Source: a phage
Length of the DNA stretch: 64,000 nucleotides
Sequence record: PZ445439.1
Direction: 5' to 3' (one strand)
This document shows positions 2,653 to 55,100 of this stretch, one piece after another. Below the pieces are notes generated by a model. That model did no database searches. It had not been told where the DNA came from and saw nothing but the letters and a program-made list of their open reading frames with translations. How positions within the stretch are numbered: position 1 is the first letter of the stretch; every line of letters begins with the position of its first letter. The translations under genes and the position numbers were made by a program.

Positions 2653-4277
<1,625 letters not shown>

Positions 4278-4278
<1 letters not shown>

Positions 4279-4526
4279 TGGAAGGTTTAATTGAAGCTAT
4301 TAAATCAAACGACCTCGTAGCCGCTCGTAAATTCTTTGCTGAAGCCATGGCTGCAAGAACGATTGATTTAATTAAAGAAGAAAAAATCGCTATCGCTCGT
4401 AATTTCTTAATCGAAGGTGAAGAACCTGATGATGAGGATGACGAAGACGAGGATGATGACGAAGATAGCGATGATAAAGACAACAAAAAAGACAAAGACT
4501 CTGACGAAGACGAGGATGATGAATAA
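4278..4526 (+). CDS. 67: Prohead core protein gp67 with acidic D/E-rich C-terminus
   Basis: ORF track; TAATG overlap with gene 20 stop; size and synteny as T4 gene 67. Confidence 0.85.
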
Positions 4527-47696: not shown

Positions 47697-48089
47697 CTAC
47701 TTTTTAAAAGTTTTTTGCAAAAGTTCGATGATTTCGTCGACGTTGGTTTCATCTACGATACAATGGATTTTTGTTACACCTAAAGCTATACCTTCGTTAG
47801 TAGGTTGAGGCTTTACTATATCTACCTCAGTAAAGTATTTGAACTCGTCAGGATAAATCTCAAAATAAGTTTCAATTTCACCACCGGCAGAACATACAGT
47901 ACCATCTTCCATAGTTACACTTACTACGTTTGACGTATCGCTATCATAATCAGGTTCCATTCCGTTTACAACAAAACTAGGCCCGTGGAGTTCAATCAAT
48001 TTTAACATCTTAGCGTTATTGTGTGGTGCTTCTTGAACAAAGTCATCTTTAAATAAAGGGTTAATGATATAAGATTTTCCGATTTCCAT
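47697..48089 (-). CDS. Hypothetical protein (T4 frd.3 position)
   Basis: ORF track; ATG start; early-promoter-like element upstream. Confidence 0.65.
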   Translation of the reverse strand: MEIGKSYIINPLFKDDFVQEAPHNNAKMLKLIELHGPSFVVNGMEPDYDSDTSNVVSVTMEDGTVCSAGGEIETYFEIYPDEFKYFTEVDIVKPQPTNEGIALGVTKIHCIVDETNVDEIIELLQKTFKK

Positions 48090-48141
48090 TTTGATTTCCT
48101 CATGTTGTTGATAGGTCTATACTAACACATCCAGGGAAGAA

Positions 48142-48147
48142 GTAAAC
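48142..48147 (-). promoter_or_regulatory. Early-promoter -35 box GTTTAC (minus strand) upstream of the frd.3-position gene
   Basis: Plus gtaaac; TAGTAT -10 candidate 17 nt downstream on minus strand. Confidence 0.45.
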
Positions 48148-48178
48148 AACTTTTTCGGCAATTTACAGATACTCAAAA

Positions 48179-48196
48179 GGGAGACCGAAGTCTCCC
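48179..48196 (-). terminator. Rho-independent terminator after gene 32 (minus strand)
   Basis: gggagac-cgaa-gtctccc; minus strand followed by TTTTGAGTATC. Confidence 0.75.
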
Positions 48197-48202
48197 AATT
48201 TA

Positions 48203-49105
48203 TTATAAACCAGCTAACAGGTCATCGAGGTCGCCATCATCAGAGGATGAGGTAGAGCTCATGAAGTCATCTTCAGTTTTTGCAGAACTAAAGGCTTCCA
48301 TGTCTTTATCAAAATCGTCAAGGTCAGAAGCAACTTTATCTGCAACAGAAGCTGCTGCGGCTGCTGCACCACCAAGAGCGGCAGTACCAAGAACCTTAGC
48401 GAAAGATTCATTTAATTTTTCAAAGGATTTGAACTGGTCTTTAGCCGTCAAAGTAGTAAGGTCTACCATCTGGTCATATAGTTCTTTCTGGAATGCTTCA
48501 TCATTAATACGAGGAATTTCAGATTGACCCAAGAATTTAGATTCGTCATAGTTGCTAAAACCGGAAACCTGCTTAGCTTTCAGAACGAAGTTGGCACCTT
48601 CAAACGGACAAGTAACATCAACTGGAGTTTCACCCATTTCGGTATCAACAGCAATCATTGCATTGATTTTGTCCCAAATCTTTTTACCGAAACGATATTT
48701 AAATACTTTACCTTCGTTATCTGGAGCTTGAGGGTCTTTAACAACCAGAATATTAGCCCAATAAGAAGTTTTACGTTTCAGTTGAGAATATTCATTTTTG
48801 TTGGTATTGTACAGGTCATTTTTACTAATGTACTGACATACAGGACAAGAGTCATAATCACCATGTGTAGAAGAGCAATTTTCAATATACCATTTACCAT
48901 TTTTCTTGAAACCATGGTTAACAAGAATTGCAAATGGTAGTGCATCATCAGTTTTTGCTGGCAAGAAACGAATTACCGCTTGACCATTACCGGATGCATC
49001 TAGCTTCAGCTTCCATTCGCCTTTATCTTCTGAAGAGAAACCTTTGTTACCATTCAGTTTAGCCATTTGAGCAGCGAGGTCAGCAGTAGATTTACGTTTA
49101 AACAT
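48203..49105 (-). CDS. 32: Single-stranded DNA-binding protein gp32 (300 aa)
   Basis: ORF track; near-identical to recalled T4 gp32; acidic C-terminus; terminator downstream. Confidence 0.97.
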
Positions 49106-49194
49106 GGATTATTACCTTTTATTTAGATTATTTAATTTATTTACAGTTGGTTGCTACGACACTTATACCTCGTAGCTGGTATGATTTATTTATA
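49106..49194 (-). promoter_or_regulatory. Gene 32 leader: late promoter TATAAATA (plus 49187-49194), conserved hairpin (49153-49176) and AU-rich unstructured tract, i.e. the gp32 translational operator region
   Basis: gctacga...tcgtagc hairpin followed on the mRNA by repeated UAAAUA-type AU-rich sequence up to the AUG; gp32 autoregulation is established for T4. Confidence 0.65.
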
Positions 49195-49223
49195 AAGTAA
49201 TTTTAACACACAAGAAATAAAGC

Positions 49224-49877
49224 TTAATACTTACATGATTTGATTGTTTCTATGAACAATTTCTTAGCAACATTTCCATCGATTTGAAGTATTTTTCGAT
49301 ATGCCTTTAATTTGGTAGAATAATTTTGCCAGACTAAGTTATCGGTGAGTTCGTCGTGCTTATCTATAATATTCAAAAACGAGTCCAACAATAAGAAAGT
49401 CTCAAATGAAATTATATTGCTTTGTAACAATTTAAATATGTAGCTCGACTGAACTTTATTATTATAATCAAATATCTCTTGAAGCGCACTAACTTCCACT
49501 TTCTTACTGAAATAGTAGATGTTACGTACGTCTTCAGCAAACGTCTCTTTAGCTTGTTTGAGACGTCCAATATATTCCCTATAGAAAACTAATGCATCAG
49601 CGTCTGATATCTCACCAATCCATGCGTCTTGGTTAGCAACTAAGTTGCTTATGAATATCAAGGTGAGTTCCTTCAATTTATATTTCTCTGCTAGTTTTTC
49701 AAAGAAATATTTATCTCGGCGTTTTTGATACGCATTATCCGAAACACGCATGCGCCAGTTATATTTGATTACGTCATACCGACCACCAAAGTGGTTTTTG
49801 CACATCAAGTATAGTTTATATACTGATTTACCGTTAATATAACGTTCTCCGTCAGGAGGCATGCGTATTTTAATCAT
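49224..49877 (-). CDS. 59: gp59 helicase loader (217 aa)
   Basis: ORF track; highly similar to recalled T4 gp59. Confidence 0.93.
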   Translation of the reverse strand: MIKIRMPPDGERYINGKSVYKLYLMCKNHFGGRYDVIKYNWRMRVSDNAYQKRRDKYFFEKLAEKYKLKELTLIFISNLVANQDAWIGEISDADALVFYREYIGRLKQAKETFAEDVRNIYYFSKKVEVSALQEIFDYNNKVQSSYIFKLLQSNIISFETFLLLDSFLNIIDKHDELTDNLVWQNYSTKLKAYRKILQIDGNVAKKLFIETIKSCKY

Positions 49878-50553
49878 AGTTCCATCCAGGCCATTTTGAA
49901 GATTTAAGTCTATACGTAACTAGAGATGCAGAAATATTAAAAACATCCGAAACTTCTGTGCATGATGAGTATTTTATACCATCAATAATTATAGGTTTTT
50001 GTTTTTTAATAGTTCTTTCTTTAGAATGCGGCTTTGAATTTGCTATTCTAAGAGCTTCTTTGGTTGAATCAGGCATCGGCTTATTCGTTTTTCGCCCTTT
50101 TCGGACTTTACTCAAAGCTAATTTATGAGCTTCAGATAGTTTCTTACCCTTATTAGGGGATGGTATTTTTCTTTCTAATCTGGTTTTAGATACTTTAGCC
50201 TTAGTCTCTTCAGATCTAGGTTTCCCTATTTTAGAAAGTGAAATAGCCCTTTTAGCTTCATCACTTTGTTTTTTACCAGGGCCACCTTTACCACCTGGAA
50301 CCAGGTTATAAGTATCAGTTCGCAAAACAAAATCTTCATTAACCAATTCTGCTTCTTTTTTATAGGCGTCCTTGTCATTATCATATTCATAAAGAACTTC
50401 AGTATAAAAATTTTTTAGCCCGTATTTAGCTTTGGCCGCTAATATAGCGCGACCAGACCCAATATACCAATCTTTCTCTTTATGTTTTTTGTGTACGCCT
50501 ATATAAATTTTACCATTTATTTTATTGGTAGTTTTATACACAACGTATTTCAT
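49870..50553 (-). CDS. GIY-YIG homing endonuclease, Seg-type (227 aa)
   Basis: N-terminal GIY-YIG module (YVVYKTTNKINGKIYIGV); Lys-rich linker with repeated S-x-x-x-K-x-A-x-S-like (NUMOD3-type) motifs; overlaps genes 59 and 33 by a few nt. Confidence 0.8.
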   Translation of the reverse strand: MKYVVYKTTNKINGKIYIGVHKKHKEKDWYIGSGRAILAAKAKYGLKNFYTEVLYEYDNDKDAYKKEAELVNEDFVLRTDTYNLVPGGKGGPGKKQSDEAKRAISLSKIGKPRSEETKAKVSKTRLERKIPSPNKGKKLSEAHKLALSKVRKGRKTNKPMPDSTKEALRIANSKPHSKERTIKKQKPIIIDGIKYSSCTEVSDVFNISASLVTYRLKSSKWPGWNYD

Positions 50554-50888
50554 AATAAGAAATCTAACGTATTAGTTTTTTCACCACGAGCAACTGATGG
50601 GCGAAGCATGTTTTCGTCAATTGCTTCGCTTGTAATTTTTTCAATAATTCCTGTAGGAATAAATTTAGCAAATTGTGTTTCTGGAATAGAATTTTCTTCC
50701 AAGAAAGCAGTTGTTGCTTCTAAATAAGACATACCGAATTGTTCAACCATGGATTCGATAATGAATCCGTTTTCTTGTCTGTCAAGCAATTTAGCGATAT
50801 CATCTTTATCGTGTTTTACTGCTAATTCTTGTTCAGATAAACCGGCCTCATCAACCGGTTTAATATCACTTAGTGAAAACTGTGTCAT
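50550..50888 (-). CDS. 33: gp33 late transcription co-activator (112 aa)
   Basis: ORF track; near-identical to recalled T4 gp33. Confidence 0.92.
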   Translation of the reverse strand: MTQFSLSDIKPVDEAGLSEQELAVKHDKDDIAKLLDRQENGFIIESMVEQFGMSYLEATTAFLEENSIPETQFAKFIPTGIIEKITSEAIDENMLRPSVARGEKTNTLDFLL

Positions 50889-51135
50889 AAAGCTCGACTA
50901 CCTCTTCGTTTTCAGCTTCAAATTGGTCACGAGCGTCTTTATGATAAAGAGCTAACAAACGATTAAACATTTTTCCATCGACACCAAGCTCTTCTTTAGC
51001 ACGAGTACGAATGTCTTTAATCAGTTCATTATAACCAGAAATTTTAAGTTTGTTATCGGAAGCTTCCTTGACTAGTTTAGCCAGTTCTTCACCATGCACA
51101 TCTTGATTAAATTCAACTGCTTCTTTCTTAGCCAT
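50866..51135 (-). CDS. dsbA: DsbA double-stranded DNA-binding protein (89 aa from ATG 51135 with GAGG Shine-Dalgarno)
   Basis: ORF track; T4 DsbA size; synteny between rnh and 33. Confidence 0.8.
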   Translation of the reverse strand: MAKKEAVEFNQDVHGEELAKLVKEASDNKLKISGYNELIKDIRTRAKEELGVDGKMFNRLLALYHKDARDQFEAENEEVVELYDTVFTK

Positions 51136-51142
51136 GTTTACC

Positions 51143-52060
51143 TCAGAATTCATTAATTACACTTGTTAATTTAGAAAGACCAGATTTTACAAAGTATGAA
51201 TAAATCTTGCCTTTAGGTTGTTGTTTATATGAGTTATAATACTCTATAATGGTTGAAGCAATATTATCAGGGATATAATCAAAATCAATGAGAACCAAAT
51301 TTTCTTGATACCGTTTATATTCTTCTGCACTTAATAATACTTCAGCTTGAGAACGGTCATTGGCAATTGCTTCAATAATCGTTGTTTTCATGCTCGGAGT
51401 TCGTTCACCATCAACTCTGGTAAACCAGAAGTCGCCACGAACTCGAACAGATGCAACACCATCCTTACGGTCACCTTTAAGAATTTTAGTCATGCAATCA
51501 ATTTCAGCAGAACCATTCTTAATTTTAACCCATTTTTTCTGTGGTGGCGACCACTGTTTAACGTTAGGATATTTGTGTAATTGTGTAAAGTCACCATCTG
51601 ATGCAACAATACATACTTTATGTCCAGCTAATGACAAATATTTAGTTAATACACCGATATGGTCATCCGCTTCATACTTGTCAATATCCATTACAACGTA
51701 TGGCATGTATTTCTTAATCTCATCAACAACTTGATGGAGTGCAGTAAAATATCCTTCCCAATCCCACTTTGAAGCTTCACGATCGGTTTTACGATTTTTC
51801 TTGTAATAGTAAGCAAAGTCACGACGCCAATAACCCGAAGTAGCATTATCCATACATAATACAAATTTTGTATAGCCTTGCTTACGGAACATCACTACGT
51901 TTTTACGAATTGAATTCAAGATTACATGGCGAACCATCGGAACGGTAATTTTATCGCCGTCTTCAAAGTTGTTTAATGCGGCTGCCAATGCAATGTTACT
52001 AAAGTCAGCAAGTGCAATACCTTCTTTGTAATCTTCATCTAACATCATTTCTAAATCCAT
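51143..52060 (-). CDS. rnh: RNase H / 5-prime-3-prime exonuclease (305 aa)
   Basis: ORF track; FEN-family features; T4 Rnh size; synteny upstream of gene 34. Confidence 0.92.
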   Translation of the reverse strand: MDLEMMLDEDYKEGIALADFSNIALAAALNNFEDGDKITVPMVRHVILNSIRKNVVMFRKQGYTKFVLCMDNATSGYWRRDFAYYYKKNRKTDREASKWDWEGYFTALHQVVDEIKKYMPYVVMDIDKYEADDHIGVLTKYLSLAGHKVCIVASDGDFTQLHKYPNVKQWSPPQKKWVKIKNGSAEIDCMTKILKGDRKDGVASVRVRGDFWFTRVDGERTPSMKTTIIEAIANDRSQAEVLLSAEEYKRYQENLVLIDFDYIPDNIASTIIEYYNSYKQQPKGKIYSYFVKSGLSKLTSVINEF

Positions 52061-52115
52061 ATGAACCTCTTGTTCAGTTAGTCAACTTGTCTATAGTAAC
52101 ACACTCATTTGAAAG

Positions 52116-52121
52116 CGTAAA
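52116..52121 (-). promoter_or_regulatory. Early-promoter -35 box GTTTAC (minus strand) upstream of rnh
   Basis: Plus gtaaac; TACTAT -10 candidate 18 nt downstream on minus strand. Confidence 0.45.
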
Positions 52122-52125
52122 CTGG

Positions 52126-52133
52126 TATAAATA
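52126..52133 (+). promoter_or_regulatory. Late promoter TATAAATA for gene 34
   Basis: Exact motif about 30 nt upstream of ATG. Confidence 0.7.
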
Positions 52134-52163
52134 AGTATTATTGAAACAATAAAGGAAAAACGA

Positions 52164-55100
52164 ATGGCCGACATCAAACGTAAGTTCAGAGCCGAAGACG
52201 GTCTGGACGCCGGTGGCGACAAGATTGTTAACGTAGCATTAGCCGACCGTACAGTAGGTACTGATGGCGTAAACGTTGACTTCCTGGTACAAGAAAACAC
52301 CGTTCAAGTATATGATTCTACGCGTGGATATAACAAAGGATTTGTTGTTCTTTATGACAACCGTTTATATCAAGCAATAAATGATATCGTGTCTCCTTCC
52401 GGGGCATTTAACCTTTTACAATGGCGTGCAGTTCGTACCGATGCACAATGGATAACTGTCGCTTCTGGGACTTATCAACTTTCTTCAGGTGAATCGATTT
52501 CGGTTAACACTGGTGCCGGCAATGATATGGTTTTCACGTTGCCAAATACGCCGGTTGATGGTGATACTGTTGTTTTGGCTGATATTGGTGGAAGAACCGG
52601 GACAGTTAAAGTACAGATTAACGCGTCTGTGCAGAGTATTTTAAACTTTAGAGGTGAACAAGTTCGTACAGTTTTAATGACGCGCCCACGTTCACAACTA
52701 TTGTTTGTGTTTAGTAATCGTTTGTGGCAGATGTATATTACCGATTATGGTAAAGAATCAATCACTGTTACACCTGCGACACCATATCAAGCACAAGCAA
52801 ATGATTTTATCGTTCGTCGTTTTACTAGTGCAGCACCAATCAACATTACACTTCCACGTAATGCTAACAATGGTGATATAATCAGCCTAGTCGATTTAGA
52901 TAGATTAAACCCACTATATCATACAATTGTTAAAACATTTGATGATACAACGTCTATTGGTGAAGTCGGGACTCATATTGCCGAAGGCAGAAATGACTCT
53001 GACGCGTTTTTTGTTTTTGATGCTGCAAATAGTTTATGGCGTATATGGGAAGGCGACCAGAAATCGCGTCTTCGTATTATCCGTGCGGATTCAAATATTC
53101 GTCCAAATGAAGAAGTTCTTATTTTTGGCACAAATAACGCTACAGCCGGAACTATTAATCTTACGCTGCCTTCCGGAATTTTGAGTGGTGACACTGTTAA
53201 AATTTCAATGAACTACATGCGTAAAGGCCAAACAGTAAAAATTAAAGCTGCCGAAGGTGATACAATTGCTTCTTCTGTTGCATTGCTTCAGTTCCCTAAA
53301 CGTTCTGAATATCCACCTGATGCTCAATGGGTCTCTGTTACTGAACTAGAATTCAATGGCACTACTTCATATGTTCCTGTATTAAAATTAGCATATATCG
53401 AAGACACCGTTGCTGGTACACGTTATTGGGTTGTTCAACAAAACGTCCCAACTGTAGAACGTGTTGATGCTGGAACTGATGCTACACGAGCTCGTTTAGG
53501 TGTTATTGCTCTTGCTACTCAAGCGCAAGCAAATGTTGATTTAGAGAATACTCCAGCTAAAGAAGTTGCTATTACTCCGGAAACATTGGCAAATCGTACA
53601 GCAACTGAAGCTCGACGTGGTATCGCTAAAATTGCCACAACAGCACAAGTTAACCAGAATTCCACAGCATCATTTGTGGACGATACTATTGTTACGCCTA
53701 AAAAACTAAATGAGCGTACAGCAACTGAAACTCGTCGCGGTCTTGCTGAAATTGCTACTCAGGCCGAAACCGATGCCGGTCTTGATGACACAACGATTAT
53801 TACACCTAAGAAATTGCAGGCACGTCAGGGCTCTGAAACACTATCTGGTATAGTTAAATATGTATCAACTACTTCTGCTACTCCTGCTGAAACTCGTGGA
53901 ACCGCAGGCACTAACGTTTATAATAAAACCGTAAATAATTTAACTATTTCTCCTAAAGCCCTTGACCAATATAAAGCAACTTATGCTCAACAAGGTGCGG
54001 TAATTTTAGCTGTTGATAGTGAAGTAATTGCTGGTCAATCACAAGCAGGTTATTCTCATGCTGTAGTAACTCCTGAAACACTACATAAGAAAACTTCTAC
54101 TGATGGACGTATTGGTTTAATTGAAATTGCTACGCAAGCAGAAACTAATGCTGGGACTGATTATACACGCGCAGTAACACCTAAGACGTTAAATGATAGG
54201 AAAGCTACGGAAGGATTATCCGGCATAGCCGAACTTGCTACGCAAGTTGAATTTGATACTGGAACTGATGATACTCGTATCTCGACTCCACTGAAAATTA
54301 AAACTCATTTTGATTCTTCTGACCGTACCAGTGTTAATTCTGATTCCGGACTTATTGAAGAAGGAACCTTGTGGAACCATTATACTCTTGATATTTCTAA
54401 AGCAAATGAAACACAACGCGGTACACTTCGCGTAGCGACACAGGCAGAATCTAATGCAGGAACTTTAGATGATGTTCTTATTACTCCTAAAAAGCTTTTA
54501 GGGACTAAGTCCACTGAAACGTCTGAAGGCGTAATTAAGGTTGCTACTCAGGCTGAAACTGTAACAGGAACTTCTGCTAATACTGCTGTATCTCCTAAGA
54601 ATTTAAAATGGATTGTCCAGAAAGAACCAACATGGGCTGCTACTACAGCAATTCGCGGATTCGTTAAAACTTCATCCGGTTCTATTACATTCGTTGGTAA
54701 TGATACAGTCGGTTCTACACAACCTTTAGAATCATATGAGAAAAATAGCTATGCAGTATCACCATATGAATTAAACCGTGTACTTGCTAACTATTTGCCA
54801 TTGAAAGCTAAAGCCGTAGATAGTAATTTATTAGATGGCCTAGATTCATCTCAGTTCATTCGTAGGGACATTGCACAGACGGTTAATGGTTCACTATCCT
54901 TAACCCAACAAACGAATCTGAGTGCCCCTCTTGTATCAACTAGTACTGCTACGTTTGGTGGTTCAGTTTCGGCAAATAGTACATTAACTATTTCTAACTC
55001 TGGAACAGCTACTCGTCTGATTTTTGAAAAAGGACCTCAAACTGGAACTAACCCAGCACAGACGATGACTATCAGAGTTTGGGGAAATGAATTTGGCGGT

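Follow-up and report, generated by a model that had tools for sequence, protein, structure and literature searches.

Organization of the locus

The gene studied here is an open reading frame (ORF) of 227 amino acids (aa) that lies between two essential genes, 33 and 59, in sequence record PZ445439.1. The stretch analysed, 64,000 nucleotides (nt) of phage DNA which we call the window, has the genome type of an RB69-like (Mosigvirus) coliphage. On its minus strand, the interval from 48.2 to 52.1 kb contains, in this order, rnh, dsbA, 33, the 227-aa ORF, 59, a 118-bp spacer and 32 (Table 1), which is the T-even order with one additional ORF between genes 33 and 59. The first-pass annotation, made from the sequence alone, had described this ORF as a free-standing GIY-YIG gene of the Seg type with NUMOD3 repeats, compactly overlapping both of its neighbours. 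The coordinates, the length, the motif and the overlaps that it gave agree with the ORF list and with the sequence, and the description itself is supported by the domain calls and the junction sequence.

The ORF starts with ATG, has the N-terminus MKYVVYKTTNKINGKIYIGV and ends with a TAA that lies within the initial 8 nt of gene 59, ATGATTAA, so that these two genes overlap by 8 nt. At the other end, no Shine-Dalgarno sequence was visible by inspection at the ATGA shared with gene 33. No other GIY-YIG gene turned up when the window was searched for one, and the 118-bp spacer between genes 59 and 32 contains no ORF, so segG is absent there.

Table 1. Genes and sequence features around the 33/59 junction of the window
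Feature	Position	Strand	Basis or remark
rnh	51143-52060	minus	
dsbA	50866-51153	minus	
Gene 33, late transcription co-activator, upstream neighbour	50550..50888	minus	PHROG 254; polymorphism table: none linked to cassette
ATGA overlap, 4 nt: gene 33 stop and endonuclease start	50550..50553	minus	sequence; translational coupling
Left repeat copy, ATGA--- AAATACG	50544-50553	minus	junction alignments
Homing endonuclease ORF, 227 aa, entire cassette coding region	49870..50553	minus	ORF list; PHROG 314
GIY-YIG catalytic domain, residues 1-92	50278..50553	minus	62-sequence alignment; SegA-E, SegH and I-TevI alignment; AlphaFold2; Foldseek
Lys/Ser-rich linker with four NUMOD3-like helices, residues ~93-175	50029..50277	minus	Pfam NUMOD3; AlphaFold2 helices
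C-terminal I-TevI-type helix-turn-helix DNA-binding domain, residues 183-226	49876..50007	minus	PF20987; phmmer; Foldseek
Gene 59, helicase loader, downstream neighbour, probable target gene	49224..49877	minus	PHROG 269, E=3e-84
Gene 59 start ATGATTAAAATACG, right copy of imperfect direct repeat	49864..49877	minus	junction alignments
Cassette-linked tract, gene 59 nt 24-93	49785..49854	minus	boundary nt 84-93 = 49794-49785; allele table, five lineages
Gene 32	48203-49105	minus	

A base-exact insertion between genes 33 and 59

In a megablast search of 50,697 phage records with positions 49100-51000 as the query, the matches were RB69-like Mosigvirus phages. The entire query was contained in 28 records and the remainder matched it as two pieces covering 65%. 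A tblastn search returned the same 28 records at 95% aa identity or more, and nothing else above 60%. Of approximately 154 Mosigvirus records, 28 have the inserted segment, hereafter the cassette, and about 126 lack it.

The alignment of the window with the cassette-free phage APCEc01 gives the cassette as a base-exact insertion of 676 bp. The empty site in APCEc01 is ...TTATTATGATTAAAATACGC..., and in the filled site of the window ...TTATTATGA is followed by AATACGTTG... at one joint and ...AACTATGA by TTAAAATACGC... at the other. The first-pass annotation had considered the short overlaps of the ORF typical of a compact mobile insertion. In the cassette-free phages, genes 33 and 59 are joined by an identical ATGA. 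Copies of an imperfect repeat are present at both ends (Table 1), and therefore the cassette is bordered by a short direct repeat of the gene 59 initiation region. In phage IME540 and in locus L015 the endonuclease gene starts with ATGATTAA(A/G), which is an exact copy of the gene 59 start; relative to these two, TTA has been lost from the endonuclease start of the window.

Regarding expression, no late-promoter motif, terminator or structured RNA was found in or before the cassette. The only minus-strand TATAAATA nearby, a T4-type late promoter motif, is at 49187-49194, within the 59/32 spacer and ahead of gene 32. Sigma-70-like matches near the cassette showed no excess over the shuffled expectation. 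From rnh to gene 32 the minus strand has no terminator. An RNA hairpin that masks the start has been described for some T4 endonuclease genes; a search for such a start-codon-masking hairpin by folding positions -67 to +54 gave a z-score of -0.7 and nothing notable. Several T4 seg and mob genes are promoter-less cassettes with overlapping upstream ORFs (PMC2988022), and the 33/59 cassette fits this pattern. We also observed that late motifs TATAAATA are frequent in the window, 19 against 8 expected from shuffles, and that a plus-strand copy is located at 52126-52133, upstream of gene 34.

Domain architecture and conserved residues

Judged by sequence comparison, the 227-aa protein is I-TevI-like in its architecture and belongs to the SegA-E/SegH group. 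It matches PHROG 314, 'homing endonuclease', over its full length (E=4e-55). In Pfam, the I-TevI DNA-binding domain (I-TevI_DNA-bd, PF20987) matches residues 183-226 with E=5.7e-11, exceeding the curated cut-off, and NUMOD3 is matched in two stretches with 20.7 bits for a cut-off of 20.4.

An alignment of 62 homologues, drawn from a collection of 5.8 billion proteins, was used to build an AlphaFold2 model, which has a mean pLDDT of 90.4. When this model was compared with the PDB by Foldseek, the best match was 1MK0, the I-TevI catalytic domain (prob 1.00, TM-target 0.67), the second was 1I3J_A, the I-TevI DNA-binding domain (prob 1.00), and I-HmuI came after that. Furthermore, 1I3J was also matched by sequence with phmmer (E=5e-4). 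The helices of the linker cover residues 98-108, 115-127, 141-153 and 162-173 of the model. As the whole protein has a single Cys, it has no zinc finger of the I-TevI type. By analogy, the protein probably acts in an I-TevI-like mode, that is, as a monomer which is anchored by the helix-turn-helix (HTH) and whose nuclease is tethered by the linker.

The residues Y6, N10, Y17, G19, Y30, G32, F49, E67, Y82, N83, G87 and G88 are invariant in the 62 homologues. They include the GIY-YIG residues Y6, Y17, G19, E67 and N83, in which the first-pass annotation had allowed for mutation. The GIY and YIG motifs (VVY6 ... IY17IG19) align with Y6, Y17 and G19 of I-TevI, and N83 aligns with its N90. In the MAFFT alignment E67 is one residue out of register with I-TevI E75, and for this reason the equivalence of these two residues is presumed. 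The I-TevI segment FEKRWKRHF, a helix with R27 and H31, is an insertion that is missing here as well as in SegA-E, SegG and SegH, and in its place the 62-sequence alignment shows that the Seg group conserves H21 and Y30-x-G-S-G. As no Seg protein has this helix, the lack of it here would be a trait of the subfamily and not a lesion. Several T4 Seg enzymes without the R27 segment are listed as active (PMC2988022 Table). We infer that the 227-aa protein has catalytic activity.

Relationship to the Seg proteins of T-even phages

In BLASTP comparisons the best T4 match was SegD, which is 35% identical over the full length (E=6e-38), and T6 SegH followed with 33% (E=1e-33). With SegC (6e-26), SegB (2e-24) and SegE (3e-21) the identity is 42-47% in the N-terminal domain, while SegA and I-TevI gave 38% (E=2e-15) and 27% (E=2.5e-9) respectively. 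SegG gave no match at E<=10. In the T4 genome (NC_000866) segG occupies 147909-148541 and is flanked by genes 32 and 59; a review table also places it there, with gene 32 as the target of SegG (PMC2988022; PMC535899). The position that the first-pass annotation gave for SegG is therefore correct. It had proposed, as alternatives, a different insertion site or a different Seg family member, and actually both hold: the 33/59 junction of T4 is vacant, with genes 33 and 59 overlapping directly by ATGA, and the closest relatives are SegD and SegH. No known T4 endonuclease is located at this junction. In the Dhakavirus IME540 both sites are occupied, 59/32 by a SegG homologue (58% identity) and 33/59 by a relative of the window protein with 56% identity. 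Since IME540 carries both, SegG and the 33/59 endonuclease are separate elements that are able to coexist on the two flanks of gene 59.

Regarding the SegG homologue of IME540, it has 205 aa (L003:3845-4462), so gene 59 is bracketed there by two unrelated GIY-YIG genes. SegG homologues at 59/32 together with a vacant 33/59 site were seen in L006, L014 and L026 (~3650-4290). The match in L014 is split in two overlapping pieces, and this copy may be disrupted.

Conservation of the site, selection and transfer

Every homologue of at least 45% identity with a readable context sits between genes 33 and 59 and keeps the overlaps of a few nt. Homologues at this same junction, with 45-58% identity, were found in IME540, L015/L104, L105/L106, L107 and L108, which represent at least four other lineages; the endonuclease cluster of L015/L104 (P0010) has Serratia phage LC53 as its source name. 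Among 42 Tevenvirinae loci retrieved from IMG/VR with gp59, gene 33 directly abuts gene 59 in 41. IMG/VR holds only one close Mosigvirus locus (L004), so this survey gives the context across genera and not population counts. Apart from these loci, a distant T4-like metagenomic contig of 160 kb encodes a GIY-YIG protein with 39% identity (P0024, L109:3001-3660). Its gene adjoins, in the opposite orientation, a 198-aa gene next to gp32 that is probably the gp59 counterpart, and a gp33-like gene is ~750 bp off. Possibly this neighbourhood was colonised independently in that contig.

A comparison of nine intact Mosigvirus copies gave pN/pS values of 0.05-0.15, the synonymous differences numbering as many as 31, against 11 non-synonymous ones. 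Such ratios indicate that the endonuclease ORF is under purifying selection as a whole, catalytic residues included. The copy of phage AV116 (L091:2263-2947) has an extra C near nt 309 that breaks the frame, and a 138-aa C-terminal piece is annotated there; this frameshift is either real decay or a sequencing error. We also observed that the endonuclease gene of the cassette-bearing Mosigvirus phages diverges by up to ~6% in nt (pS up to 0.21), against ~1% in gene 33. This excess could mean old or multiple lineages of the gene in flanks that have been homogenised by recombination.

The comparison of L105 with L107 (L105:3001-3600, L107:3001-3696) is informative about transfer. The 5' 450 nt of the endonuclease gene are 94-100% identical, whereas genes 33, 59 and dsbA are ~80% identical. 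A nearly identical segment in genomes that are otherwise so different means a recent transfer between diverged genomes. The 3' parts of the two genes differ: one gene has a short form, with one HTH type and only three helices in the linker, and the other has the long form, with four linker helices and an I-TevI-like HTH, as in the window. This pattern points to modular recombination inside the endonuclease gene, by which the DNA-binding module would have been replaced.

A divergent tract at the 5'-end of gene 59

We read the flanks of the cassette in ten cassette-bearing Mosigvirus copies (the window and nine others) and in eight cassette-free loci. On the gene 33 side, no polymorphism segregating with the cassette was found among these 18 loci. 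On the gene 59 side, all ten cassette-bearing copies have T49818, A49796, C49794 and GG49787-6, which give Asn28 and Gly31 in gp59, while six of the eight cassette-free genomes have C, C, A and AA at those sites (Gln28 and Asn31). The other two, NRG-P0074 and G53, have the cassette-type block.

At the level of the collection, a 138-nt query of the gene 59 5'-end separated the 154 records into 43 at 95% identity or more and 111 at 90-95%. The higher band holds 27 of the 28 cassette-bearing records (the remaining one is at 94.9%) and around 16 of the 126 cassette-free ones. Fisher's test for band against cassette gives p = 7e-18 when relatedness is ignored.

Furthermore, five cassette-bearing genomes of independent lineages were each compared with their nearest cassette-free relative. 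If the differences were uniformly distributed, 14.6% of them (0.146) would be expected in gene 59 nt 1-95. The differences in this segment and in all 650 nt were 9 and 17 for the window and APCEc01, 14 and 28 for IME540 and L018, 20 and 30 for L105 and L009, 23 and 53 for L108 and L013, and 26 and 80 for L015 and L029. The fraction is therefore 0.33-0.67 (binomial p between 2e-4 and 1e-10). In each of the five comparisons the differences cease at nt 84-93 and a long identical stretch follows, so that a divergent tract of nt ~6-93 is linked to the cassette in five independent lineages. As a control, 33 of 36 cassette-free pairs of comparable divergence gave 0-0.22; the exceptions were L008/L037 (0.26) and two pairs with NRG-P0074 (0.28 and 0.64). 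Gene 33, up to the junction, is 98-99% identical in the close pairs, and 99.3% identical between L105 and L009.

The tract of L105 is 72% identical to that of its cassette-free relative and 81-82% identical to that of L107, and it differs at almost every third codon position. Both the identities and the third-position differences mean that this is imported DNA and not a handful of selected mutations. Beyond the tract, nt 94-135 of gene 59 are highly conserved across genera. A shared cleavage motif (e.g. CNNNG) that separates the alleles with and without the cassette was not identified, and this search was not pursued further.

Proposed explanation and its alternatives

We consider that the ORF encodes a free-standing GIY-YIG homing endonuclease, still functional and belonging to the T-even Seg group, carried by a promoter-less 676-bp cassette at 33/59 and homing with gene 59 as its target, and we give this explanation a probability of roughly 80%. 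The cassette takes the coupled ATGA start that normally belongs to gene 59, and gene 59 gets a duplicated start that also contains the stop codon of the endonuclease. In a mixed infection, the enzyme would be expected to cut the cassette-free allele of a relative. Repair of the double-strand break off the cassette-bearing genome would then copy into the recipient the cassette together with the DNA from the insertion to the cut, and the outcome would be homing with co-conversion, that is, marker exclusion.

Under double-strand-break repair, the DNA between the insertion and the cut must come from the donor. Around 90 nt of foreign DNA on the right and none on the left is what such repair predicts if the cut is ~90 bp inside gene 59. 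From this pattern we infer that the cleavage or recognition site is at gene 59 nt ~60-95 (~49783-49818), with the boundary at nt 84-93 (49785-49794), and the divergent tract of cassette-bearing genomes would shield them from the enzyme. The first-pass annotation had mentioned that such endonucleases drive marker exclusion of neighbouring genes. By analogy with them the 33/59 endonuclease may do so, and the polymorphism pattern of the flanks is what marker exclusion or co-conversion would leave.

Several points weigh against this explanation. The literature searched contains no cleavage or homing experiment on the 227-aa protein or its clade. Two Pfam models remain under their cut-offs, namely SegE_GIY-YIG (PF19835, 19.9 bits for 25) and GIY-YIG (PF01541, 11.6 for 22.6), and the catalytic Arg27 of I-TevI has no alignable counterpart here nor in any T4 Seg protein. 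The Mosigvirus records are phylogenetically non-independent and include RefSeq/GenBank duplicates. The tract is neither sufficient for the cassette nor exclusive to it, because of the cassette-free records that fall in the cassette-type band. In addition, the cassette-bearing phages JK42, OLB35 and Shf125875 have bases of the cassette-free type at gene 59 nt 27, 48, 54 and 87, and a simple one-step co-conversion fails to predict such bases between the cassette and the fixed block. Finally, the boundary of the tract could mark the point where nucleotide conservation resumes, in which case nt 94-135 would be a homology arm and the boundary would not be the cut site.

This last point leads to the alternative that survives best, which we nevertheless consider unlikely. 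The gene would encode a homing endonuclease of this same kind, but the recognition site would span the 33/59 junction and be destroyed by the insertion, as with intron-encoded enzymes, and the gene 59 tract would be hitch-hiking donor DNA, with its boundary set where sequence homology resumes. Homing targets tend to be highly conserved, and the junction ..GATTTCTT(A/G)TTATGATTAA.. is indeed so across genera; the HTH of I-TevI binds at the insertion site (PMC2988022). The tract differences of L105 are mostly synonymous third positions, which resembles imported DNA, and the conserved nt 94-135 would be a natural crossover zone. However, a cut at the junction should leave roughly symmetric tracts, whereas the import extends ~90 nt rightward and ~0 leftward despite the fact that the donor gene 33 differs (99.3% identity between L105 and L009, 80-90% between L105 and L107). 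Moreover, the fixed sites of Mosigvirus (nt 60-92) are more distant from the cassette than the recombined ones (nt 27-54).

Far less probable is that the gene is a domesticated or stranded remnant which no longer homes and is kept because its removal would upset the translation of the essential gene 59, or for another role, such as the stimulation of local recombination or amplification. The cassette does provide the start context of gene 59 and is translationally coupled, the AV116 copy is broken by a 1-nt insertion, and one paper reports a role of T6 SegB in amplifying anti-defence loci (PMC13096335). Nevertheless, the purifying selection is strong over the entire ORF, including the catalytic residues, the nearly identical endonuclease DNA amid flanks of ~80% identity indicates recent transfer, and the ATGA junction of 33/59 works without the cassette in cassette-free genomes.

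The remaining alternatives can practically be discarded. A displaced orthologue of T4 SegG, which likewise adjoins gene 59, is rejected by its place in the genome and by the BLASTP comparison with the full set of T4 Seg proteins, which showed no similarity to SegG, and IME540 has a true SegG homologue besides. An intron-encoded enzyme, as two GenBank records suggest with 'group I intron endonuclease', is rejected because the gene sits between two complete genes and an Rfam scan of 48000-52200 matched no family, group I introns included, at E<=1. This GenBank label reflects homology only.

A broader proposal, in addition to the homing endonuclease itself, is that the 33/59 elements make up a separate Seg lineage, in effect a new Seg enzyme, which targets the 5'-end of gene 59, has stayed at one insertion site in at least five Tevenvirinae lineages and has had its C-terminal module swapped between two HTH types. 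We put it forward tentatively, with the odds somewhat against it.

Significance

Free-standing homing endonucleases shape the survival of alleles of essential replication genes in T-even co-infection. The 33/59 endonuclease would bias the inheritance of the 33-59-32 block of replication and late transcription in RB69-like phages, a group often isolated for use in phage therapy. If its target in gene 59 were mapped, there would be one more characterised Seg enzyme, whose closest T4 relative, SegD, is without a known target. If the site-faithful lineage is real, it would be a natural series on how a tethered GIY-YIG nuclease keeps or retargets its specificity, and gene 59 of the IME540 type would be bracketed by two independent homing endonucleases, each driving conversion from its own side. 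The engineering of tethered GIY-YIG nucleases could also profit from the natural variants whose DNA-binding modules are swapped.

Full-text literature searches yielded no paper on an endonuclease located between genes 33 and 59; where homing endonucleases come up in the phiC120 and Sextaphag papers, it is in generic terms only. GenBank records already annotate the gene as 'homing endonuclease', 'Seg-like' or, in Shf125875, 'SegH-like', and it is an uncharacterised Seg-family member of a well-known class. The current understanding of such elements is unchanged by it. The comparative footprint is clean and yields a specific prediction of the target, and is unsurprising to a specialist. As regards the shape of the window itself, the best phage-record match of positions 40000-62000 has 93.7% identity over 81%, with breaks in the long-tail-fibre region, so this part is possibly mosaic.

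Comparison with known systems

The closest T4 relative, SegD, is encoded between genes 23 and 24 and has no assigned activity or target (PMC2988022). It is like the window protein in the layout of GIY-YIG domain, NUMOD3-type linker and C-terminal HTH, and both belong to PHROG 314. However, it occupies another insertion site and is antisense to its neighbours, whereas the window gene is co-oriented and translationally coupled. SegH of T6 and RB3, at nrdD/nrdG, is matched almost over its full length at 33% identity and likewise overlaps both neighbours by a few nt, but it is found at another locus, has 276 aa and its linker repeats are more numerous. SegG of T4 is on the other flank of gene 59 and is likewise a promoter-less cassette, although the pairwise similarity is undetectable and the junction is different. 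SegG is the model case of co-conversion in which cleavage takes place at a distance from the insertion site (PMC2988022; Liu et al. 2003 via PMC535899). Regarding I-TevI, encoded by the td intron of T4 (1MK0/1LN0, 1I3J), its catalytic and DNA-binding domains are the two best structural matches of the window protein. Nevertheless, I-TevI is intron-encoded and has a zinc finger and the R27/H31 helix, whereas the window protein is free-standing and has four NUMOD3-like helices in its linker.

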